A DNA stretch of 64,000 nucleotides. Source: Dehalococcoidia bacterium (GTDB lineage: Bacteria; Chloroflexota; Dehalococcoidia; UBA2979). A program made the translations under genes and the position numbers. Location of the stretch: contig OZ244720.1 of assembly GCA_965219085.1 (NCBI GenBank), positions 451,684-515,683 of the forward strand, written 5' to 3'. Below the pieces are notes generated by a model. That model was not told the origin of the DNA and did not search any database. It was given only the letters and a program-made list of their open reading frames with translations. Below are positions 2,656 to 54,926 of this stretch, piece by piece; the stretch's first letter is position 1, and each line of letters begins with the position of its first letter.

Positions 2656-3135
2656 CTACCGACGGCGCCGCCTTCGGCGAGGCTCGGAGGCGGGTGCGCC
2701 CAGCGGGCACGAGCCGTCGTGTGTGAGCAGGTGCAGATGACCGCGATTCTGGTAGACGCTGCCCCGTGGGTGGTCGACGAGGGCGGGATTTCCGAAGTCC
2801 GCGTGTAGTCTGCGGTCCGAAGAACAGAGCAGCCGTGCTCCAGAGACGCGGGCGAGAGCGATGACATGAGCGTCGTTCGAGACGCATTGGCCCTCGACCT
2901 GGGCCGTCTCCGCTGCCACCTCCTCGGGCGAAATGAATCGGGCGAGCTTCGCGCGCTCCCAGTTCCGGAGCAGCCGTCGAGCATCGCCGACCTCGAAGAG
3001 CTCGTCGAGCAGTCGGCCGCCTGCGACAAGCACTCCCTGCCCGCTAGCGATCCATTCCCAGAGCGGCTCGAGTTCTTGATCGACTGGATCGCCAAAGAAC
3101 CGGGGAGCGACGTTCGCGTCGACGATCGCGCACAC
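2656..3135 (-). CDS. PIN-like domain protein, partner of upstream ATPase
   Basis: Starts MCAIVDANV, later SNDAHV and SSD acidic positions resembling PIN catalytic residues; start codon immediately abuts ATPase stop (3136). Confidence 0.5.
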   Translation of the reverse strand: MCAIVDANVAPRFFGDPVDQELEPLWEWIASGQGVLVAGGRLLDELFEVGDARRLLRNWERAKLARFISPEEVAAETAQVEGQCVSNDAHVIALARVSGARLLCSSDRRLHADFGNPALVDHPRGSVYQNRGHLHLLTHDGSCPLGAPASEPRRRRRRR

Positions 3136-4425
3136 TTACTGGCCAACGCCGAAGAAACGGCGGTCCTCTTCAAGAAAGAAGCTGCGGTAGCCCTCCGGCA
3201 CATCAACGACTCGGCCTGCTGCGTCGACTTCGATCTCGTGGATCTGTACCCCGCCGCGGCCCTGCTCGAAGTACAGGATCATCACGTCACTCGGCCTGAT
3301 CTTTTCGTCGCGCACGTCCATGCGCACGCGGTCGACGAGGTAATCGCTGTGCGTCTCGACGACCACGGGATCCCGGCCGCTTGCAGCCAGTTGGGCGAAG
3401 AAGGAGCCTATCGCGGCTTGCGCGCGTGGGTGCAGGTGGACTTCGGGTTGTTGAATGAGCAGCATCTCCATAGGCGAGGCTGAGACACAGTCTGCGATGA
3501 TCGGGATTGCTTGGCTGACCCCGTAGCCGACATCGATAAGGTTGCGCGCCTTCCCGCCGCGAGCAGGCTTAACCTCGATCTGGAACGGGTCGCTCCCCCG
3601 ACTTCCGAGCCTGCGGATGCCGAGGCTGGCGTACAGACCGCTCGCTTTTCCGAAGTCATTGAGTTCTTCGTTGTAGAGCTTGTCTTCACCCGCTAGCCAC
3701 GCGGCCAGCGTAACCGGGATGTGGTCACCCTCGGGACGGCGGGGCTCCGCCGTCGGATCATAGGTTCGGCGCGGGCTCGTTCGGATTGGCGCGAACGCAT
3801 TGGGTCGGTCTAAAGAATCTCTCAGCGCGCCAACGAGCAGCACAAGGAAAGATTCGCTATGTTCGCGCGCTATGCCGGGGTCGGCCCCGTCAGCCGAGAT
3901 GAGCGTGTGGGTTAGGACTGGCCAGAGGCTGGCAGCTTGACGAGCCCTCTGATCCCGAATCCCCAGCGCGACCGGCCTTTCCAGTACTGTCTCACCCCCG
4001 ACGGAGAACGAGACCGCAGGCTCGCCCCCTTCCAGACCCTTGAGCCCTAGCAGGTACTCCCCTGCAGAGGCGCAGAATTCAGAGATACTCGGCTGAGCGT
4101 CTCGGGATATGAAGCGGGATTCGACTCGCAACTCGTGATGCCGACCTCGATTTAGCGGAAAGTCAGGGCTCTCAAACTCGAACTGTAGCCCCACGGCGAA
4201 GCTCTTCGCCGGACGTCCTCGATTGTTGGCGACCTGGTCGTAGCTGCCGAGGCGGAACGGCTCCTCGTTGAAGTTTGGCTCCATCCGGTCGTGGGCTGCT
4301 CGTACCCCAGCGAGGAACGAGGTTTTGCCCGTGCTGTTCTCCCCCACGAGCAGCGTCAGCGGCCGGATCGGCACCTCGTGGCGGCCCGCGAAGCAGCGGA
4401 AGTCCTCGAGGATCAACGTGTTCAT
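3136..4425 (-). CDS. AAA_21/ABC-type (OLD- or abortive-infection-like) ATPase with degenerate Walker B
   Basis: Walker A GENSTGKTS; Walker B region MLLIQQPEVHLHP (QQ instead of DE); H-loop ETHSDYL; lower-GC region. Confidence 0.8.
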   Translation of the reverse strand: MNTLILEDFRCFAGRHEVPIRPLTLLVGENSTGKTSFLAGVRAAHDRMEPNFNEEPFRLGSYDQVANNRGRPAKSFAVGLQFEFESPDFPLNRGRHHELRVESRFISRDAQPSISEFCASAGEYLLGLKGLEGGEPAVSFSVGGETVLERPVALGIRDQRARQAASLWPVLTHTLISADGADPGIAREHSESFLVLLVGALRDSLDRPNAFAPIRTSPRRTYDPTAEPRRPEGDHIPVTLAAWLAGEDKLYNEELNDFGKASGLYASLGIRRLGSRGSDPFQIEVKPARGGKARNLIDVGYGVSQAIPIIADCVSASPMEMLLIQQPEVHLHPRAQAAIGSFFAQLAASGRDPVVVETHSDYLVDRVRMDVRDEKIRPSDVMILYFEQGRGGVQIHEIEVDAAGRVVDVPEGYRSFFLEEDRRFFGVGQ

Positions 4426-23982: not shown

Positions 23983-25035
23983 GTGACGGCTGAACAGATT
24001 CGCCTCACCGAGCTCGCATCCTGCGGCGGCTGAGCGGGGAAGCTGGGTCTCGCGACCCTGGCGCAGGTGCTGCGCCCCCTGCACGAGGTCTTCGCTCCCG
24101 GGCAGCACCCCGAGCTGCTCGTCGGCCTGGCGCCGTCCGATGACGCCGCCGTGTACCGGCTGAGCGACGACCTCGCGGTCATCCAGACGCTCGACTTCTT
24201 CCCGCCCGTGGTGGATGACCCGTACACCTACGGCCAGATCGCCGCGGCGAACGCCATGTCCGACGTCTACGCGATGGGTGGCGAGGTGCGGCTCGCGCTC
24301 AACATCGCCGCGTTCCCGGAGGACCTCGACCCCGAGTTGCTCGCCGAGATCGTGCGCGGCGGCGCCGACAAGGTGGCCGAGGCGGGCGGTGTCGTCGCCG
24401 GCGGCCACACCGTGATCGACCAGGAGCCGAAGTTCGGGCTGTCGGTGATGGGCGTGATCCACCCCGACGCCGTGCTCACCACCGGTGGCGCGCGGCCCGG
24501 AGACGCGCTGCTGCTCACCAAGCCCCTCGGTACCGGCATCCTCATGAGCGCGGCCGGCGCGCAACACGACGGCGTCGAAGCAGGCTTCGAGGCGGCCGTC
24601 GAGTCGATGCGGACGCTGAACCGCCACCCCGCGCACCTCGCGCGTGCCGCCGGCGTGCACGCGATGACCGACGTGACGGGCTTCGGGCTCGCCGGGCACG
24701 CCTCCGAGATGGCGCTGCAGAGCGGCGCGACGCTCGTGATCGACCTCAACGCGCTGCCGCTGCTGCCCGACGCCGCGCGCTTCGCCGCCGACGGCGTCGT
24801 GACCGGCGGCGGCAACCGCAACGTCGCGCACCTCGGCGACCGCATCCGCATCGAGGGCGAGCCGGAGCAGGCGCTCGTCGACGTGTTCTACGACCCGCAG
24901 ACCTCGGGCGGCCTGCTCATCGCGCTGCCCGCGGCTGACGCCGAGGCGCTCCGCGAGGCGATCGCGGACGGGGGCGGCGGATGCTGGCGCATCGGACACG
25001 TCGAGGAGGGCCCGCCGCTCGTGGTGACCCGGTGA
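23983..25035 (+). CDS. selD: selenide, water dikinase (selenophosphate synthetase), selenocysteine-containing
   Basis: GTG start at 23983 with GGAGGG RBS; N-terminus MTAEQIRLTELASCGG-U-AGKLG with in-frame TGA at 24031-24033 where SelD has its catalytic Cys/Sec; ORF track only reports from 24067. Confidence 0.85.
24045..24058 (+). promoter_or_regulatory. candidate bacterial SECIS hairpin for selD UGA
   Basis: GGGTC tcgc GACCC stem-loop starting 12 nt after the UGA. Confidence 0.35.
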
Positions 25036-27337: not shown

Positions 27338-28561
27338 CTAGCCGCGCGGCAGCGCCAGTCCGCGCGTCGCGATGATGTTGCGCTGGATCTCGTTCGAGCC
27401 GCCGAAGATCGTGAACACCACGCTGTGCACGTAGAGCTGCGTGAAGCGCGCGTCCAGCGGGGTCAGCTCGTGCGCGCGGTCCCAGATGTTCGAGTAGAGC
27501 CCGAACGCCTTCATGCCGGTGTTCGCCGTGCGCTGTTCCAGTTCCGAGCCGAAGATCTTCGAGGTTGACGCCTCGTAGTTCGGGACCATGCCGCCCGCCT
27601 GCATCGAGATGATGCGGAACGAGAAGTTGAAGAGCACCTCGGACTCGATCCAGCGGTCGGCGATCGCCGACCGCGTGGTGCGCGCCCGGTCCTGCGTCCG
27701 CAACTGGCCGTCGTCCGTACCCATGTAGTCGATGAGCGACCGGAGCCGCCGCCGCGTCTCGACGGCGCCGGCGATGTTGGAGCGCTCGAAGTCGAGCAGG
27801 GTCATGCCGACGTACCAGCCGCGGTTGACCTCGCCGATGACGTTGTTGGCCGGCACGTGTACGTCCTCGAAGAACGTCTCGTTGGTGGCGTGCTCAAAGC
27901 CCATCGAGATGATGGGGCGGACGGAGATACCGTTGTTGGTCTGCGGCATGACCATGAAGGTGATGCCGCGGTGCTTCGGGGCGTCGGGGTCGGTGCGGAA
28001 CATCCCGAACAGCCAGTTGGACTTGTGGGCCGAAGAGGTCCACATCTTCTGGCCGTTGATGATGTACTCGTCGCCGTCGCGGATGGCGCGCGTCTGCAGC
28101 GAGGCGAGGTCAGAGCCGGCGCCCGGCTCCGAGAAGCCCTGCGACCACAGCATCTCGCCGCTCAGCGACGGCGCCAGCAGGCGCTCCTTCTGCTCGTCGG
28201 TGCCGTGGATCAGGACCGTCGGCCCGAGGAGCGAGAGGCCGCTCCCGCCGACCATCGGCGCCTCGGCCTCGGCCATCTCCATGTTGAAGATGAACTGCTC
28301 CATGGCGGTGAGGCCGGCGCCGCCGTACTCCTGCGGCCAGTGCGGAGCGACCCAGTTGCGCGACGACATGGTGTCGGCCCACTCCTGCGCCGCGGCCTTC
28401 GCCTCGTCGCTGCCGTGGGCCATGTCCTGCTGCCAGTCATCCTCGAGGGTGACGGCGTTCCAGACCCGCTTGTCCCTGTAGTACTGCGGCAGGTTCGAGT
28501 CGATGAACGAGCGCACGTTCTCGCGGAACGCCGCCTGCTCTGCCGTGTCTTCCCAATCCAT
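27338..28561 (-). CDS. acyl-CoA dehydrogenase (copy 1)
   Basis: 407 aa ACAD fold (N, middle, C domains). Confidence 0.88.
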   Translation of the reverse strand: MDWEDTAEQAAFRENVRSFIDSNLPQYYRDKRVWNAVTLEDDWQQDMAHGSDEAKAAAQEWADTMSSRNWVAPHWPQEYGGAGLTAMEQFIFNMEMAEAEAPMVGGSGLSLLGPTVLIHGTDEQKERLLAPSLSGEMLWSQGFSEPGAGSDLASLQTRAIRDGDEYIINGQKMWTSSAHKSNWLFGMFRTDPDAPKHRGITFMVMPQTNNGISVRPIISMGFEHATNETFFEDVHVPANNVIGEVNRGWYVGMTLLDFERSNIAGAVETRRRLRSLIDYMGTDDGQLRTQDRARTTRSAIADRWIESEVLFNFSFRIISMQAGGMVPNYEASTSKIFGSELEQRTANTGMKAFGLYSNIWDRAHELTPLDARFTQLYVHSVVFTIFGGSNEIQRNIIATRGLALPRG

Positions 28562-28726: not shown

Positions 28727-29950
28727 CTAGCTGCGAGGCAGCGCCAGTCCGCGCGTCGCGATGATGTTGCGCTGGATCTCGTTCGAGCCGCCGAAGATCG
28801 TGAACACCACGCTGTGCACGTAGAGCTGCGTGAAGCGCGCGTCCAGCGGGGTCAGCTCGTGCGCGCGGTCCCAGATGTTCGCGTACAGGCCGAACGCCTT
28901 CATGCCGGTGTTCGCCGTGCGCTGCGACAGCTCCGAGCTGAAGATCTTGGAGGTCGACGCCTCGTAGTTCGGCACCATGCCGCCCGCCTGCATCGAGATG
29001 ATGCGGAACGAGAAGTTGAACAGCACCTCGGACTCGATCCAGCGGTCGGCGATCGCCGACCGCGTGGTGCGCGCGCGGTCCTGCGTCCGCAGCTCGCCCT
29101 CGTCCGTGCCCATGTAGTCGATGAGCGACTCCAGCCGCCGCCGCGTCTCGACCGCGCCGGCGATGTTGGAGCGCTCGAAGTCGAGCAGCGTCATGCCGAC
29201 GTACCAGCCGCGGTTCTCCTCGCCGATGACGTTGTTAGCGGGGACGTGTACGTCCTCGAAGAAGGTCTCGTTGGTGGCGTGCTCGAAGCCCATCGAGATG
29301 ATCGGGCGTACCGAAATGCCGTTGTCGGTCTGCGGCATGACCATGAAGCTGATGCCGCGGTGCTTCGGCGCGTCGGGGTCGGTGCGGAACAGCCCGAACA
29401 GCCAGTTGGACTTGTGGGCCGTGGAGGTCCACATCTTCTGGCCGTTGATGACGTACTCGTCGCCGTCGCGCACCGCGCGCGTCTGCAGCGAGGCGAGGTC
29501 TGAGCCGGCGCCCGGCTCGGAGAAGCCCTGCGACCACAGCATCTCGCCGCGCAGCGTCGGCGCCAGCAGGCGCTCCTTCTGCTCGTCGGTGCCGTGGATC
29601 AGCACCGTCGGACCCATCAGCGAGAGGCCCTGCCCGCCGACCATGGGGGCCTCGGCCTCGGCCATCTCCATGTTGAAGATGAACTGCTCCATGGTGGTGA
29701 GGCCGGCGCCGCCGTACGCCTGCGGCCAGTGCGGGGCGACCCAGCTGCGCTGCGACATGCGGTCGGACCACTCCTGCGCCGCGGTCTTCGCCTGGTCGCT
29801 GCCGTGGACCATGTCCATCTGCCAGTCATCCTCGAGGGTGACGGCGTCCCACGCGCGCTTGTCCTTGTAGTACTGCGGCAGGTTCGAGTCGATGAACGAC
29901 CGGACGTCATCGCGGAACGTTGCCTGCTCTGCCGTGTCTGCCCAATCCAT
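28727..29950 (-). CDS. acyl-CoA dehydrogenase (copy 2, about 90% identical paralog)
   Basis: Same length and near-identical sequence to copy 1; 1389-bp period. Confidence 0.88.
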   Translation of the reverse strand: MDWADTAEQATFRDDVRSFIDSNLPQYYKDKRAWDAVTLEDDWQMDMVHGSDQAKTAAQEWSDRMSQRSWVAPHWPQAYGGAGLTTMEQFIFNMEMAEAEAPMVGGQGLSLMGPTVLIHGTDEQKERLLAPTLRGEMLWSQGFSEPGAGSDLASLQTRAVRDGDEYVINGQKMWTSTAHKSNWLFGLFRTDPDAPKHRGISFMVMPQTDNGISVRPIISMGFEHATNETFFEDVHVPANNVIGEENRGWYVGMTLLDFERSNIAGAVETRRRLESLIDYMGTDEGELRTQDRARTTRSAIADRWIESEVLFNFSFRIISMQAGGMVPNYEASTSKIFSSELSQRTANTGMKAFGLYANIWDRAHELTPLDARFTQLYVHSVVFTIFGGSNEIQRNIIATRGLALPRS

Positions 29951-48628: not shown

Positions 48629-49357
48629 CTAGTCGCTGAGCGCCAGCGCCAGCCGCGCGTCGATGCTCCGCAGCGCCGCCTCGGCGGTCGAGATGCCCTC
48701 GCGCTCAGCGACGCGCAGCAGCTCCAGCGTGGTTGCTCCGACGCGCTCGATCAGATCTTCGGGCGATGCCGAGCCGGTCGCGTAGTCCACGCCGACGAGG
48801 ATGGCGCCACCGGCGTTCACCACGTAGTCCGGCGCGTACGCGATCCCGCGTTGCGCGAGCAGCTCGGCGTCGGCGGGGTCGCGCAGCAGCTGGTTGTTCG
48901 CGCCACAGCAGACGATGCGGCAGCGCAACTCCGGGATCGTCGACGCGTTGAGCACACCGCCGAGCGCGTTCGGCGAGAACACGTCGCACGGCTGCGCGTA
49001 CGCACCGTCGAGGGCGACCGGCTCGGCGCCGATCTCGTTCGCCAGGGGGACGGCGATCTCATCGTAGAGGTCCGTGACCGCCACATTGGCGCCCTCGGCG
49101 GCCGCGCGGCGCGCGACCGCGCCGCCGACCTTCCCAACGCCGATGACCACGATGCGCCGCCCGGCCAGCGCGCCGTCTCCGACGACGGCTTGCAGTGAGG
49201 CGCGCATCCCGTTGAGCACGGTCCGCACCGTCGGCTCCGCCGTGTCCTTGACGACCTCGCGGGCCGCACTGAGGCCCACGACATGCGACGTCTGCGGGCG
49301 ATCAACGGCAGCTCATCGAGAGCCGTGCCCACGTCCGTGCCGGTCACATAGCGCCCG
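48629..49357 (-). pseudogene. Glu/Leu/Phe/Val dehydrogenase, C-terminal (NAD-binding) fragment, truncated by IS insertion and internally frameshifted
   Basis: GVGKVGGAVARRAAAEGANVAVTDL Rossmann and ...GRYVTGTDVGT immediately at IS boundary; extra 1-nt frameshift near 49290. Confidence 0.7.
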
Positions 49358-49435
49358 TGACCTGACCCCTTGAAACGGGACCACCGTTGATGAGAGTCCT
49401 TTGGCCCATGAAAGTGGGCAGAGGAGGACATCACG

Positions 49436-49714
49436 GTGAAACGACGCAGGCACACGCCCGAGCAGATCGTGCGCAAGCTGCGCGAGGTGGAGCGGCTGCT
49501 CGGTGAGGGGCAGACGATCGCCGAGGCGGCGAAGCAGGTCGAGATCTCGGAGCAGACCTACCACCGCTGGCGCAACCAGTACGGCGCGATGAAGGCCGAC
49601 GACGCCAAACGGCTACGCGAGCTGGAGCGCGAGAACGTCCGGCTGAAGCGGATCGTCGCCGACAAGGAACTCGAGATCGACGCGCTCAAGGAGATCGCCC
49701 GGGGAAACTGGTAA
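49436..49714 (+). CDS. IS3-family transposase OrfA (HTH)
   Basis: MKRRRHTPEQIVRKLREVERLLGEGQTIAEAAKQVEISEQTYHRWRNQYG... Confidence 0.85.
   Translation: MKRRRHTPEQIVRKLREVERLLGEGQTIAEAAKQVEISEQTYHRWRNQYGAMKADDAKRLRELERENVRLKRIVADKELEIDALKEIARGNW
49700..49708 (+). other. putative -1 programmed ribosomal frameshift site for OrfAB fusion
   Basis: X XXY YYZ heptamer G GGA AAC 4 nt before orfA stop; orfB frame is -1. Confidence 0.4.
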
Positions 49715-49923
49715 GCCCGTCGCGCCGGCGCGAGGCAGTCTGCATGTTGCAGGACCGCCTCGAGTTGTCGGAACGGCGGGCATGCCGGGTCACCGGCCAG
49801 CACCGCTCCACACAGCGCCGCCTCCCGACGCGCGGCCGCGGCGACGACGCGCTGCGCGCGGAACCCCACGCCTTCTCGCGTGGCCACCCCCGCTGGGGCT
49901 ACCGCCGGGCCTGGGCGACCTTA
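49703..49923 (+). pseudogene. IS3-family OrfB N-terminal fragment (interrupted by IS1380 element)
   Basis: ...LSERRACRVTGQHRSTQRR...HPRWGYRRAWATL then insertion. Confidence 0.6.
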
Positions 49924-51514
49924 CCCCGAAGCCACCGATCGAAGCTTGACGGGCGGGCTGCCGGGCTGGCGGAGAGTTCGGCGGGTGTGCCGTGGTGCGC
50001 CAGGCGGTGCCGGGGGCGGGCCGGAGCGAGGAGCCGGCGCTCAGCGCGGCTCGGGGGCGCTGAGAGCGCGGGCGCGAGGGTGCGCGAGGCGTGCGCGGGC
50101 ATGCTGGCGCGAGGCTCGGACCCGGGCCGGCGCTGTGAGCGCGCGTCAGGCCGGGAGCGGAAGCGCCCGTAACCGCGCCAGGGCGGCTGCCCACTGCCCG
50201 GCCCAGGGCCAGCGCTTCGGGAGGTGCAGGGTCGTCACGATTCCCTCGCCGAGCCCGAGCCGCGCCGTCCAGCGGGCGAGGTTGTGCGCGATCACCTGCA
50301 CCGCGAGCCATGCCGCGTTCGCGGCGAAGCGGCCCGAGGGGAGATGGTTGAGCCCGACGCCGTACTTGAGGTCGCGGATCGCGTTCTCGATCTCGGCGTG
50401 ACGGCGATGGTCTGCCTCCAGCTCCAGCAGCTCCCCCGCGCGGTCGCTGATGAAGGCGTGGTAGCTGTAGTCCACGAAGAGCGCGAGCTGTGAGCCGGGC
50501 GTCGGCTGGACGCGCCGCACGATGAGCCGCACCGGGGTGGCGTCCGCCGTGTGCTGGAACGGCGTGTAGGTCGTCTCGGCGACATCGGCGCCGCCCGGCA
50601 GCCAGTACGGGATCGGCGTCCAGTCCTCTTGCGGTATCGCCTCGATCAGCCGGCGCACGCTCGGCTGCTGGCGAATGGTGATCGAGAAGCGGAGATCCTG
50701 CTTGCGGCAGACGGCGACGACGGCGTGGTTGTAGAAGCCGCTGTCGGCTCGCACCGTGAGCTGCCCGCTCGCTCCGGCGTCGCGTACCCGCGCCACCGTC
50801 TCACGCAGGAAGTGTGCGGCCCCCCGTGCGGTGTTGGCGCGGCCCTCGCGCAGCCGCGCCATCAGCACGTCACCCGTCCCGGCCGCCACCGCGAGCAGCG
50901 GGTGATAGCCGCGCACGCCCGTGTAGCCGTGGTGCCGGGCGCCCTCCTTGGCCAGGCCGTAGGTCTCACAGATCGTCGAGTCGAGGTCGATCGTGAACGG
51001 CGCCGCGCCGGGTCCCGCCCCGGCCGCCCATGCGCGGGCGAGCAATGCGCGGCTGACGCGGTCGAGCTGGCGGACGTGGCCCCAGCGGAAGCTGCGCAGG
51101 AAGGTTCCGAGGGTGGACGGCGCCTTGACCGTGCAACCCAGCACGCTCGCCGTCCCGCCGGCGCGCAAGGCAGCGGCGTCGTCGATGCAGTCGCCGCCCG
51201 CGAGCGCCGAGGCGACCAGGGTCAGCAGCTTGTCGCCGGCGTTCGCGCGCCCCGCTGCGTCACCGAGGTCGAGGTGGGCGTCCGCCAGTGCACGGAGGCC
51301 GAGCCGGCCAGCGAGCGTGGCGGGGAGCAGCAGGCCTGCGTGGTCCACGAGGCGGTCGTCGCCTGAGGCGATGTCTATCCGGTCGGGGTTACTCGCTGCT
51401 AGCATCGAATGGGTGCTCCTGTGGCTGTGACGTGAATTCTCAAAACCCATTGTCCCAGCTACAGCGGAGCACCCAACCGCAGCCCCTCGCCCGCTCTTCT
51501 TCGGTGGATCAGGG
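49924..51514 (-). mobile_element. IS1380-family insertion sequence (1591 bp)
   Basis: Imperfect terminal IRs CCCCGAAGCCACCGA / CCCTGATCCACCGA; 4-bp target duplication CTTA (49920-49923 and 51515-51518). Confidence 0.8.
50146..51450 (-). CDS. IS1380-family DDE transposase
   Basis: 434 aa, ...RFAANAAWLAVQVIAHNLARW and SITIRQQ motifs typical of IS1380. Confidence 0.85.
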   Translation of the reverse strand: MGFENSRHSHRSTHSMLAASNPDRIDIASGDDRLVDHAGLLLPATLAGRLGLRALADAHLDLGDAAGRANAGDKLLTLVASALAGGDCIDDAAALRAGGTASVLGCTVKAPSTLGTFLRSFRWGHVRQLDRVSRALLARAWAAGAGPGAAPFTIDLDSTICETYGLAKEGARHHGYTGVRGYHPLLAVAAGTGDVLMARLREGRANTARGAAHFLRETVARVRDAGASGQLTVRADSGFYNHAVVAVCRKQDLRFSITIRQQPSVRRLIEAIPQEDWTPIPYWLPGGADVAETTYTPFQHTADATPVRLIVRRVQPTPGSQLALFVDYSYHAFISDRAGELLELEADHRRHAEIENAIRDLKYGVGLNHLPSGRFAANAAWLAVQVIAHNLARWTARLGLGEGIVTTLHLPKRWPWAGQWAAALARLRALPLPA

Positions 51515-51518
51515 CTTA

Positions 51519-52163
51519 CGCGAGGAGGGCTGGGGCGTGAATCGCAAGCGGGTGCAACGGCTCTGGCGTGAAGAAGGGCTGCGCGTCCCGGTGAAACGAC
51601 GCAAGCGTCAGCGCCTGGGGGACTCGGCGGTGCCCGCCGCCAGGCTGCGCGCTGAGCGGCCGAACCACGTCTGGGCGCTGGACTTCCAGTTCGACCAGAC
51701 CGCGGACGGGCGGGTCCTGAAGCTGCTCAACATCGTCGACGAGCACACACGGGAGGCGCTGGCGATCGTGGCCGCCAGGAGCATCAACGCCGACGCCACG
51801 GCCTCAACGCTCGACGGGATCGTCGCCCGGCGCGGGACGGCGCCTGGGTACATCCGCTGCGACAACGGACCTGAGCTCACGGCCAACGCCCTCCGCGACT
51901 GGTGCCGGTTCAGCGGTACGGGCAGCAGCTACATCGAGCCCGGTGCGCCGTGGGAGAACCCGTACGTCGAGTCGTTCAACGGCCGGCTGCGCGACGAGTT
52001 CCTGGCGGTCGAGCAGTTCGACAGCCTGCTCGAGGCGCAGGTGCTGCTCGAGGACTGGCGGATCGAGTACAACACGAAGCGCCCGCATAGCAGCCTGGGC
52101 TGGCTCGCCCCGGCTGCCTACGCCGAGCGCTGGGAGACTCAGCTACACGCTGGACTCTCATAA
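51519..52163 (+). pseudogene. IS3-family OrfB C-terminal fragment (integrase catalytic core)
   Basis: Resumes ...REEGWGVNRKRVQRLWREEGL...; DDE rve domain to stop at 52163. Confidence 0.7.
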
Positions 52164-52192
52164 GCGGTGGACTCGCGAAGGGGGTCCGGTCA

Positions 52193-52641
52193 CCCGCCCA
52201 GCCGCTCGACGAAGCGGCCGTAGGCGGCGAGCTGGTCGGGGGTCTTGGTCGCGGCGTCCCCGATGATCACCGCCTTGCCGCCGTCGCAGTCGAGGCCCGA
52301 GACCGCCATCTTGGCCGTCATGGCCGCCGACAGCCGGAGCACGTCGATCAGCGCCTCACCCACGTCCTCGTAAGGCTGCCAACGCGCCCCGCCCAGACCA
52401 GGGCCGAGGACGGTCGAGTGCAGCGCAATCAGCGCCCTGAGCCCGGACGGCGGGTCGTGATGGTAGTAGACCGCCTCGTGGCGATCGGGGTCGCATGGGC
52501 GACCCGCACGGGCACCGTCACCACCGGGGATTGCGTCGACGTCCAGCGCAACAGGTGCGCATCGAGCACCTCCGCCGGGCCGAGCAGCCGTTCGAGCGCG
52601 AGTCGATCCTCAAGCGGGTCTGGTCCGTCGGTTGTTGCCAT
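52193..52641 (-). pseudogene. Glu/Leu/Phe/Val dehydrogenase, N-terminal fragment (other side of IS insertion)
   Basis: ...SGLRALIALHSTVLGPGLGGARW...GLDCDGGKAVIIGDAATKTPDQLAAYGRFVERLGG ending at IS boundary; N-terminus further frameshifted. Confidence 0.6.
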
Positions 52642-52659
52642 ACCTACTTCAGCACGCGG

Positions 52660-53226
52660 CTACCTCTGGCCGAGCTCAGGCGGCAGCCCGCTCCGCGACG
52701 CGCCGCCCTTGCCCAGCAACTGGCGCAGCAGGTGGATGTAGCCGAGGTGCTGGTTGCCGTGCGAGACGACGACCTGGCCCAGCATCGCGGCGCGCGACAC
52801 CTCGAGCATCTCGCCCTCGATGCGCGCGCTCGCCGTCACGGCGAGGAACTCGTCGTCCATCGTCTCGATCTTCGCGACCACGGCCTCCGCGGTGTCGCGG
52901 CAGTAGCGCTCGAGGCTCTCGACATGCGGGAAGCGCATCGCCTGCACGTCGGCGAGGTCCATGCCGGTGCCCTGCTCGTTACGCGGGAAATCCCACGCCT
53001 GCGCCAGCCCCTGCTGCCCCCAGACCGGGCGCTCCCGGTAGAACACGAAGTGCACGATGTTGTCGGCCGAGCGCAAGACGTGCCACGCGTTGAACCCGAT
53101 CGACGTGCTGTCCTCGATCGGGAGGGCATGGAGCTCGTCGAGGGTGAGGTCGCCGAGGCTGTCGGTGATCTCGGTGAGCACCCGCCGGACCAGCCGCGAG
53201 TACTCACCGGCCAGCACGTTCGACAT
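52660..53226 (-). CDS. DinB family protein
   Basis: 188 aa four-helix-bundle DinB_2-like sequence. Confidence 0.75.
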   Translation of the reverse strand: MSNVLAGEYSRLVRRVLTEITDSLGDLTLDELHALPIEDSTSIGFNAWHVLRSADNIVHFVFYRERPVWGQQGLAQAWDFPRNEQGTGMDLADVQAMRFPHVESLERYCRDTAEAVVAKIETMDDEFLAVTASARIEGEMLEVSRAAMLGQVVVSHGNQHLGYIHLLRQLLGKGGASRSGLPPELGQR

Positions 53227-53255
53227 CGGCGCCGCGTTCCTCCCCTGGTCTCGGG

Positions 53256-53906
53256 CTACTCGCCGTTGAGCTTCGGAACCTTGAGCTGCTCCATCACGCG
53301 CTCGAAGACCTCGTACTCCTGTGCGCCGACGACGGCGTAGCGCTCGTTCAGGATGAACGTCGGCACGCCCGTCACGCCGATCGACTGCGCCCAGGTGATG
53401 CCGTTGTCGACCTGCTGGCGGTAGCGCCCGGTCTCGAGGGCGTCGCGCAGGTCATCGGCATCGAGGCCCGTCTCGTTGCCGATCTGCAGCAGGGTGTCGA
53501 GGTCGCCGAGGTTGCCGTCCTCCTCGAAGTGGGTGCGGAACAGTGCGCGGTGTAGCTCATCGCCGTCGTGGCCGTGTTCCTGCGCGTACTCGGCGGTCTC
53601 GAGCGAGAGGTGCGAGTTCGGCGTGTAGGTGCGGCCGCGCTTGAAGGTGATGCCGGCCTGCTGGCCGCGCAGTTCGAGCGCGGATGGGGGGTCACCGGGC
53701 TTGGTGTAGGGCTCGCGGCTGCGACCCTCGGGCGGGATCGACGGGTCGAGCAGGAAGGGCGCCCAGCGCACGTCCATGTCGTACTCCTGCCGCAGCTTCT
53801 CGACCTCCACGAGGCCGACATAACACCACGGTCAGATGAAGTCGGAGACGATGATGAGCGAGGTGCGGTGCTCCTCGGCGTCGGTGTTGAGTTCGTCGGT
53901 GGTCAT
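53256..53906 (-). CDS. DsbA/FrnE-like thiol:disulfide oxidoreductase, selenocysteine-containing (U-P-W-C)
   Basis: ATG at 53906 with GGGAGGG RBS; MTTDELNTDAEEHRTSLIIVSDFI-U-PWCYVGLVE...: TGA (53832-53834) sits exactly at first Cys of the CPWCYIG DsbA motif; ORF track reports only from 53810. Confidence 0.7.
53801..53817 (-). promoter_or_regulatory. candidate bacterial SECIS hairpin for DsbA-like UGA
   Basis: CGGCCUC gug GAGGUCG 7-bp stem (one G-U) with GUG loop, 14 nt after UGA. Confidence 0.3.
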
Positions 53907-54134
53907 GGAGGGGCCCTCCCGCGGTTGCGCGCCCCAGTGTAGCGCGCTTCTCGCTGTTGTCAGCGTCCCCACGCCTCGCGCAGTCCCGTTATGATGGCGC
54001 CGTGTGAGGCCCGCCGGGCCTTCGAGGGGGGAGATCGCCTAGAAGCACATACGGCAGGGTCAACGCGCCGCGTCGTCACGACGCGTCAACGGGTTGAGCG
54101 TAACGCGAAGAACGCACGTAAGGAGTGCCAGAGC

Positions 54135-54926
54135 ATGGCTGTGAAGACTTTCGAGCTGATCGACTACGAGGTCCGTGATCGGACCGCATGGATCACCATC
54201 AACAACGCCGAACGCATGAACGCGCTGAGTATCGGCGTGGTGAACGGTCTGTACGACGCCTTCGAGGAATTCACGAACGACGATGACGCGCTGGTCGCCG
54301 TCCTGATCGGTGGTGGCGGTCGTGCGTTCTGTGCAGGCGCGGACCTCGTCGCGATGACACAGCGCGACCAGACCGAGGGGCAGGGTGCGCCGGCTCCGAC
54401 ACGCCCGGGGCTGGAGGCCGTCTCCGAATGCCCGAAGCCAATCATCGCGGCCATCGATGGCTACGCACTGGCCGGTGGGATGCAGCTCTCGAGCCGCTGC
54501 GACATCCGCATCGCGACCGAGAAGTCGCGGGTGGGTATGCCCGAGGTACGACGCTCCCTCGTCGCCGTCGGCATGGTCGACACGGCCGAGCGCTACGTGC
54601 CGCGCGGCGAGGCGATGTGGATCCTGCTGACCGCGGACCACATGACCGCCGAGCGCGCCTACGACATCGGCTTCCTGCAGGCGCTGGTACCGGACCGCGA
54701 CGCGCTCATCGTAGAGGCGGAGCGCGTGGCCGGTGAGATCAAGAAGAACGCGCCACTGGCGGTGGCGGCGGTCAAGCGGACCATCCTCCAGACCAGCCAC
54801 ATGTCGCCGCTGGACGCGATCCACCTCCGCAACGCCCTCAACGAGAAGGTGGAGCAGAGCGAGGACCGGATGGAGGGCCCCAAGGCCTTCGCCGAGAAGC
54901 GCGACCCCGTCTGGAAGATGCGCTAG
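54135..54926 (+). CDS. enoyl-CoA hydratase/isomerase family protein
   Basis: ATG 54135 behind AAGGAG; crotonase fold. Confidence 0.8.
   Translation: MAVKTFELIDYEVRDRTAWITINNAERMNALSIGVVNGLYDAFEEFTNDDDALVAVLIGGGGRAFCAGADLVAMTQRDQTEGQGAPAPTRPGLEAVSECPKPIIAAIDGYALAGGMQLSSRCDIRIATEKSRVGMPEVRRSLVAVGMVDTAERYVPRGEAMWILLTADHMTAERAYDIGFLQALVPDRDALIVEAERVAGEIKKNAPLAVAAVKRTILQTSHMSPLDAIHLRNALNEKVEQSEDRMEGPKAFAEKRDPVWKMR

Follow-up and report, generated by a model that had tools for sequence, protein, structure and literature searches.

Is the 184-amino-acid (aa) protein that gene callers place on the minus strand of this stretch a complete product, or the remnant of a longer, selenocysteine (Sec)-containing oxidoreductase whose in-frame UGA was taken for a stop codon? 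The stretch (hereafter, the window) is a 64,000-nt (64-kb) segment of contig OZ244720.1 from a Dehalococcoidia bacterium, and all coordinates are window positions. The initial annotation had stated that the called open reading frame (ORF) lacks a redox motif, and that extending it upstream in frame across a TGA (53832-53834) to an ATG would give a FrnE/DsbA-like protein with Sec replacing the first Cys of its motif. Both the coordinates and the translation hold up. The mechanical ORF call begins only at GTG 53810 and contains no CxxC, the minus-strand frame runs from ATG 53906-53904 to TAG 53258-53256 (216 codons), and its sole in-frame TGA (53834-53832) coincides with the first Cys position of the DsbA/FrnE motif CPWC. 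The read-through translation is MTTDELNTDAEEHRTSLIIVSDFI-U-PWCYVGLVEVEKLRQ..., in which SDFI-U-PWCYVG stands opposite SDIACPWCYIG of FrnE. We consider it very likely that this UGA-containing gene is a genuine selenoprotein gene. Its features, upstream signals included, are as follows.

53256..53906, minus strand: full-length coding sequence of the predicted FrnE/DsbA-like selenoprotein, 216 codons including Sec25, plus the TAG stop; matches Pfam DSBA and FrnE (5cnw)
53832..53834, minus strand: TGA predicted to be read as selenocysteine U25, first position of the U-P-W-C redox motif; TGA in 74/80 and TGT/TGC in 6/80 species genomes
53823..53825, minus strand: TGT codon of Cys28, the resolving residue of UxxC and the only Cys of the protein; invariant in 82/82 family members
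53914..53920, minus strand: Shine-Dalgarno-like GGGAGGG, 7 nt before the ATG; the nearest relatives have GGGAG/GGAGG in the same place
53936..53963, minus strand: promoter-like CTGACA-16 nt-TACACT upstream of the full-length start, a consensus match only

The GC contents of the three codon positions (GC1/GC2/GC3 = 0.71/0.40/0.93) have the pattern of a real coding frame in a window of 70% GC, and the overlapping plus-strand ORFs were set aside as the usual antisense artefacts of high-GC DNA. The ribosome-binding site (RBS) GGGAGGG reported before the ATG was found at 53920-53914 with a 7-nt spacer. The CTGACA-16-TACACT element is the sole sigma-70-like match within 52500-54200, where 0.1 would be expected by chance.

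The protein domain spans the TGA, as the match to Pfam DSBA (PF01323, with U written as C) begins before this codon and goes on after it. It covers residues 17-204 and profile positions 2-189 of 191 (E=1.7e-31; 109.9 bits against a cutoff of 25.6). The best solved relative in a phmmer search was Deinococcus radiodurans FrnE (5cnw and others; E=2.7e-27, residues 13-205), followed by SCO1869 (3gl5; E=2.1e-13). The only NCBIfam match, to a (seleno)lipoprotein family distinct from this one, stayed below threshold (45.7 bits, cutoff 190), and there is no equivalog model for the protein. For the fold we used the AlphaFold model of P0012, a 64%-identical Cys homologue (mean predicted local distance difference test score (pLDDT) 90.9, predicted template modelling score (pTM) 0.87), which has a thioredoxin fold with a helical insertion; its active site lies where the first helix begins, immediately behind strand beta1. 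Foldseek searches with this model returned FrnE first (template modelling score (TM) 0.74-0.77), then SCO1869 (TM 0.75, root-mean-square deviation 3.4), and below it kappa-class glutathione S-transferases (GSTs), HCCA isomerases, YjbH and the cytosolic reductase DsbM, with the periplasmic DsbAs lower. Cys28 is the only conserved Cys column among the 82 family members. The N-terminus, MTTDELNTDAEEHRTS, is acidic, has no hydrophobic signal-like segment and leads straight into strand beta1. Taken together, this homology argues for a FrnE-type oxidoreductase of the DsbA superfamily with a probable cytoplasmic location.

The TGA was then read across relatives. A protein homologue search (5.8 billion proteins, 337 matches) returned close matches (65-87% identity) that are all calls of ~181-207 aa covering only ~75-85% of the query; the retrieved ones begin MEVEKL or MEVERL, that is, with the same truncation as the ORF call of the window. 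Full-length Cys proteins at 55-65% identity carry SDFICPWCYVGL or SDVVCPWCYVGL, with Cys at the position of the window's TGA. In a genome scan with one genome per species (Genome Taxonomy Database, GTDB), 80 loci had a homologue at 45-90% protein identity. These are from Chloroflexota metagenome-assembled genomes (MAGs; Dehalococcoidia, Tepidiformaceae and Anaerolineaceae-labelled bins) except for one labelled Actinomycetes and one unclassified. Sponge-type bins named 'Chloroflexi bacterium SB06xx' come closest, with ~90% identity. Read directly from DNA, the codon is TGA in 74/80 loci and TGT or TGC in six (numbered L023, L024, L026, L028, L066 and L072), so that Cys aligns with the TGA both in full-length proteins and in genomes. 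The flanks on both sides of the codon are conserved down to 45% identity ([LIV]xx[VI]SD[FY][IV]-*-PWCY[VIL]GL, the asterisk marking the codon), and the upstream frame is retained, with a start codon 11-30 codons 5' of the TGA at all loci.

Many orthologues have a TATACT box ~7 nt before the ATG. A TATACT/TAtAcT box ending ~6-7 nt before the ATG, with no Shine-Dalgarno sequence, was seen at L034, L038, L040, L042, L047, L048, L050, L059, L060 and L067, and likewise at L068, L070, L073-L075, L077, L078, L080, L081 and L083-L085. The arrangement suggests leaderless mRNAs starting at the full-length start. The clade of the window differs from these orthologues in having a GGGAGG Shine-Dalgarno sequence and a promoter-like site ~30 nt upstream.

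The initial annotation had also placed a hairpin after the UGA, and this element is where the comparison among genomes is most informative.

53800..53818, minus strand: putative bacterial Sec insertion sequence (SECIS) hairpin, 8-bp stem UCGGCCUC/GAGGUCGA with apical loop GUG (53810-53808); from folding and cross-genome comparison

The hairpin UCGGCCUC-GUG-GAGGUCGA starts 13 nt past the UGA and consists of eight pairs, one of them G-U, capped by a 3-nt loop. The bacterial SECIS consensus comprises a loop of 3-9 nt, a stem of 4-16 bp, a UGA-to-loop distance of 16-37 nt, a minimum free energy of at most -7.5 kcal/mol and a G within the first two loop positions, usually as G[G|U] (PMC13188914). 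The window hairpin lies within all of these bounds (3-nt loop, 8 bp, GU, 21 nt from UGA to loop, -10.7 kcal/mol). Among the 74 unique Sec-type sequences, 71 form all eight stem pairs and three form 7/8. Every loop opens with G and has U or G in second place (GUG 42, GUC 10, GGC 9, GUU 7, GGU 3, GGG 2 and GUA 1). At third codon positions, the entropy of the five stem codons (+5, +6, +7, +9 and +10) is 0-0.30 bits, compared with 0.7-1.6 bits in the loop codon and the codons flanking the stem; Glu +9 is GAG in 70/70 sequences, against GAG in 31 and GAA in 30 for Glu +11. One pair shows a compensatory change from C-G to U-A (L058, L064, L065 and L071), made up of a synonymous GGC->GGT and a Val-to-Ile GTC->ATC replacement, and another varies from U-A to U-G. 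The six Cys forms have only 4-7 pairs, and their loops (AUG, AAA, AAG, UCC, ACG) never start with G. This comparison indicates that synonymous sites of the stem are under purifying selection across the Sec forms. An outer stem around the UGA proposed by RNAalifold (alignment columns 3-6 with 14-17) was rejected, as it falls on invariant codons and has no support.

A further line of evidence comes from elsewhere in the window. The DsbA-like gene had been described as the second UGA-Sec gene of the window, and the pair as support for active Sec decoding; the other gene is selD, and this part of the claim also stands.

23983..25035, plus strand: selD (selenide, water dikinase), with its own TGA at 24031-24033 in the motif SCGG-U-AGK; TIGR00476

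The ORF at 24034-25035 scores 353 bits against TIGR00476 (cutoff 125), and its frame runs upstream through the TGA to GTG 23983, giving ...IRLTELASCGG-U-AGKLG, with the U aligned to Cys17 of Escherichia coli SelD (3u0o) by phmmer. A Sec-containing SelD implies that the cell decodes Sec, since only such a cell could make it. Together, the DsbA-like locus and this SelD point to an organism that decodes UGA as Sec, and from gene structure, conservation, hairpin and SelD we infer Sec insertion at UGA 53834-53832.

Several observations touch the selenium biology of this group. A hairpin, GGGUC-UCGC-GACCC, lies 11 nt past the UGA of selD (24031-24033). A scan for further in-frame TGA candidates in the window flagged only the DsbA-like gene and a non-coding artefact at a transposase stop; it is not exhaustive, because the same filter missed the Sec-containing selD. 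Gene calls on a related Dehalococcoidia contig break an AhpC-TSA peroxiredoxin into fragments of 43 aa and 95 aa (L002 1-235 and L003 1-88), probably the mark of another UGA-split selenoprotein gene. In a related genome (L004, 15848-17590), the DsbA-like gene has two adjacent UGSC-family genes ~5 kb away; this family (PF24696) is known to contain selenoproteins. Dehalococcoidia are known to be rich in selenoproteins, and 46-49 are listed for MAGs of this class (PMC13326102).

Other observations weigh against the selenoprotein interpretation or against parts of it. The single-sequence fold of the 65 nt after the UGA has z = -0.9 relative to shuffled sequence of 70% GC, and so the hairpin is significant only through comparison across genomes. 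Covariation is thin, as five of the eight pairs never vary and the sole double change is probably a single event, and the structural argument thus rests mostly on the frozen synonymous sites and the Sec/Cys contrast. One Cys form (L024) retains 7/8 stem pairs. SelA, SelB and tRNA-Sec were visible neither in the 64-kb window nor in the fetched flanks, and their presence is presumed; ARAGORN and Rfam gave no tRNA or RNA family match in the window, and no tRNA-Sec was found near the orthologues (60 related loci). As for the enzyme, the structure model depicts a Cys homologue rather than the protein of the window, no broadly conserved operon partner that could speak for its function was found among related loci, and the C-terminal CxxxxC, the regeneration tail of FrnE, is in no member among the 82 family sequences. 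Our confidence in the redox role specifically, which is drawn from homology, is lower than that in the Sec-encoding gene.

Decoding of the UGA without selenium, either by hairpin-stimulated near-cognate read-through with Trp or Cys or by genome-wide reassignment, would give a product with W/C-xx-C. A C comes directly after the UGA, which makes for weak termination, and the unseen SelA, SelB and tRNA-Sec (window, flanks and related loci) would fit such decoding. Many orthologues of this gene, however, terminate at TGA, and so do other genes of the window whose C-terminal Pfam match is complete, FakA for example; UGA is thus an ordinary stop, not reassigned, in these genomes. Moreover, the UGA sits at the catalytic Cys of CxxC, the classic site of Sec/Cys exchange, the hairpin, down to the loop G, fits the SECIS consensus of the SelB type, and the SelD of the window itself requires Sec decoding. 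We therefore regard selenium-free decoding as very unlikely.

Equally improbable is a dual output, in which translation stops at the UGA, a separate CxxC-less 184-aa protein is made from the loop GTG, and the full-length Sec form is minor or selenium-conditional. The loop triplet of the window is indeed GTG (53810-53808) and is taken as a start by ORF finders, but 32/74 sequences have a non-start triplet there (GTC, GTT, GGC, GGT, GGG or GTA), which rules out a conserved internal start. No RBS precedes GTG 53810, and the short product would be without strand beta1 and the N-terminus of the active-site helix of the thioredoxin fold. The GTG start chosen by gene callers is spurious, being the GUG loop of the hairpin.

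Least probable of the three, and in effect refuted by the conservation data, is an N-terminally truncated pseudogene, in which a TGC->TGA nonsense mutation in a Cys-type FrnE gene left no functional product: gene callers do return only a 184-aa remnant without the redox motif, and insertion sequence (IS) elements lie nearby, but a nonsense lesion is not maintained as the same TGA in 74/80 species at 45-90% protein identity, with amino acids conserved on both sides, start codons and promoter/RBS signals intact, and hairpin synonymous sites under purifying selection.

A selenoprotein gene of this kind has precedents. The DsbA-like selenoprotein family (COG2761, UxxC) was first described by Zhang, Fomenko and Gladyshev in 2005 from the Sargasso Sea selenoproteome, where its SECIS elements had a loop guanosine and Cys homologues were widespread (PMC1088965). 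Later work reported it from Anaeromyxobacter, Desulfovibrio and Desulfotomaculum (PMC1794560), a survey of ~5200 genomes placed it in 41 organisms (PMC5029168), and a 2026 review lists it as 'DsbA-like protein form 1, PF01323, UxxC' (PMC13188914). The statement in the initial annotation that Sec-containing DsbA-like proteins are rare cannot be kept, as the family is a recognised one (PMC1088965; 41 organisms in PMC5029168) and the Sec form prevails in this lineage (74/80). The gene of the window shares with this family PF01323, UxxC with Sec first, widespread Cys homologues and a SECIS with a small G-containing loop directly downstream. It differs in that its clade is of Chloroflexota/Dehalococcoidia with near-universal Sec (74/80), whereas the early papers covered Deltaproteobacteria, Clostridia and marine metagenomes. 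Judged by these shared features, we see no essential difference. All testable defining features were found in the window gene, which is thus a member of the known DsbA-like family and not a new phenomenon.

Among characterised proteins, D. radiodurans FrnE (DR_0659; 5cnw, 5co3, 5e59) is closest. It is a cytoplasmic, stress-inducible disulfide reductase/isomerase whose 22-CxxC-25 is proposed to be regenerated with the aid of a C-terminal CxxxxC tail (PMC8945050). FrnE is the best match in sequence and fold, and the two have in common the active-site context, the thioredoxin fold with a helical insertion and the lack of an obvious signal peptide. They differ in Cys22 there versus Sec here, in an identity of only about 26-30%, and in the 239-CxxxxC-244 tail, which is in none of the 82 family members. 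The FrnE proteins of S. roseofulvus and D. maricopensis are also without the tail (PMC8945050), as is the family of the window, and the tail is thus not strictly defining for the FrnE subfamily (cd03024). The second-best match, SCO1869 of Streptomyces coelicolor (3gl5), is a Cys form and a putative DsbA oxidoreductase of unknown function. Periplasmic DsbA of the E. coli type, kappa-class GSTs and HCCA isomerases likewise have a DSBA-like thioredoxin fold with a helical insertion. Fold scores for this group are much lower (TM 0.45-0.67). The periplasmic DsbAs differ in that the window protein has no hydrophobic N-terminus or obvious signal peptide and has CPWC rather than CPHC, and the GSTs and isomerases are without a CxxC dithiol. 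No DsbB was found next to the gene, the neighbours in the window being DinB_2, enoyl-CoA hydratase and CoA-transferase genes and IS elements.

By analogy with these systems, we propose that UGA 53834-53832 would be recoded co-translationally to give U25-P-W-C28, with Sec as the N-terminal nucleophilic residue of the CxxC. The 8-bp hairpin with its G-U-G loop would act as a bacterial SECIS and recruit SelB·GTP·Sec-tRNA(Sec) to the ribosome, and the SelD of the same window would supply selenophosphate for Sec synthesis. The enzyme would then cycle between the selenol/thiol and selenenylsulfide (Se25-S28) states as D. radiodurans FrnE does with its Cys pair, Sec being the more nucleophilic, lower-pKa attacking residue, and would reduce or isomerise disulfides in cytoplasmic substrates, this direction and these substrates being our presumption. 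Because the family is without the C-terminal CxxxxC tail of FrnE, regeneration would need an external reductant, for example a system of the thioredoxin/thioredoxin-reductase type.

The history of the Sec codon was traced on a neighbour-joining tree of the 82 family members (without support values). Sec forms occupy all deep branches, and Cys forms appear in at least two places, namely the clade of L023, L024, L026 and L028, and L072. The latter (Cys form, position 3085) is nested in a Sec clade (compared with L058, L064, L065 and L071). Its 7/8 stem pairs and ACG loop give it the look of a recent change from Sec to Cys whose SECIS is decaying. The distribution suggests that Sec is ancestral in the Chloroflexota family, with occasional replacement by Cys. 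A wider claim is possible though somewhat short of probable, namely that in Chloroflexota (Dehalococcoidia and Tepidiformaceae, sponge- and ocean-associated lineages among them) this tail-less FrnE-type enzyme has depended on selenium from its ancestor onwards, and almost obligately so, with at least two independent late Sec-to-Cys reversions and a SECIS frozen class-wide.

Downstream of the DsbA-like gene lies a co-oriented gene outside the recoding unit.

52660..53226, minus strand: DinB_2 superfamily gene (Pfam DinB_2), 29 nt past the stop of the DsbA-like gene

The two genes are probably co-transcribed. Their adjacency is conserved only in the eight closest loci, and the pairing therefore says little about function. 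Enoyl-CoA hydratase and CoA-transferase genes were considered as conserved partners and dropped, as the matches elsewhere are merely paralogues.

Other parts of the window carry traces of rearrangement and gene expansion. At 48629-52609 (minus strand), a Glu/Leu/Phe/Val dehydrogenase gene appears split into an N-terminal domain (52190-52609) and a C-terminal fragment (48629-49312). Between the halves are nested IS elements, with an IS3-type orfA (HTH_Tnp_1, 49412-49714, plus strand) and orfB (rve, 51288-52163, plus strand) separated by a DDE_Tnp_1_4 transposase (50146-51726, minus strand). Two tandem same-frame ORFs of 407 aa (27338-28561 and 28727-29950, minus strand), the first of which (the only one scanned) has acyl-CoA dehydrogenase domains, are probably a tandem paralogue pair. 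The region around them is rich in genes for enoyl-CoA hydratases, CoA-transferases, CoA-ligases and major facilitator superfamily (MFS) transporters and may represent a catabolic paralogue expansion. Near the start of the window, in a stretch of lower GC3, an ORF with AAA_15/AAA_21 ATPase domains (3136-4425, minus strand; putative AbiEii-type) may be a mobile or defence-related gene.

The locus opens no new kind of system. It is a well-supported addition to a functionally uncharacterised family, with Sec predicted as the nucleophile of a FrnE-type oxidoreductase that is probably cytoplasmic. The 74 Sec and six Cys genomes show with unusual clarity how codon choice is constrained by a SECIS inside a coding region, and how such an element decays once Cys has replaced Sec. 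Public protein collections hold this gene, like dozens of its orthologues, as 184-aa fragments without an active site, and the redox and selenium metabolism of these Chloroflexota is therefore under-counted. If the almost obligate selenium dependence proposed above is true, the gene would mark Sec use throughout the lineage and offer a clean natural system in which to study how Sec gives way to Cys and how a SECIS decays, and its route of regeneration could differ from that of Deinococcus FrnE.

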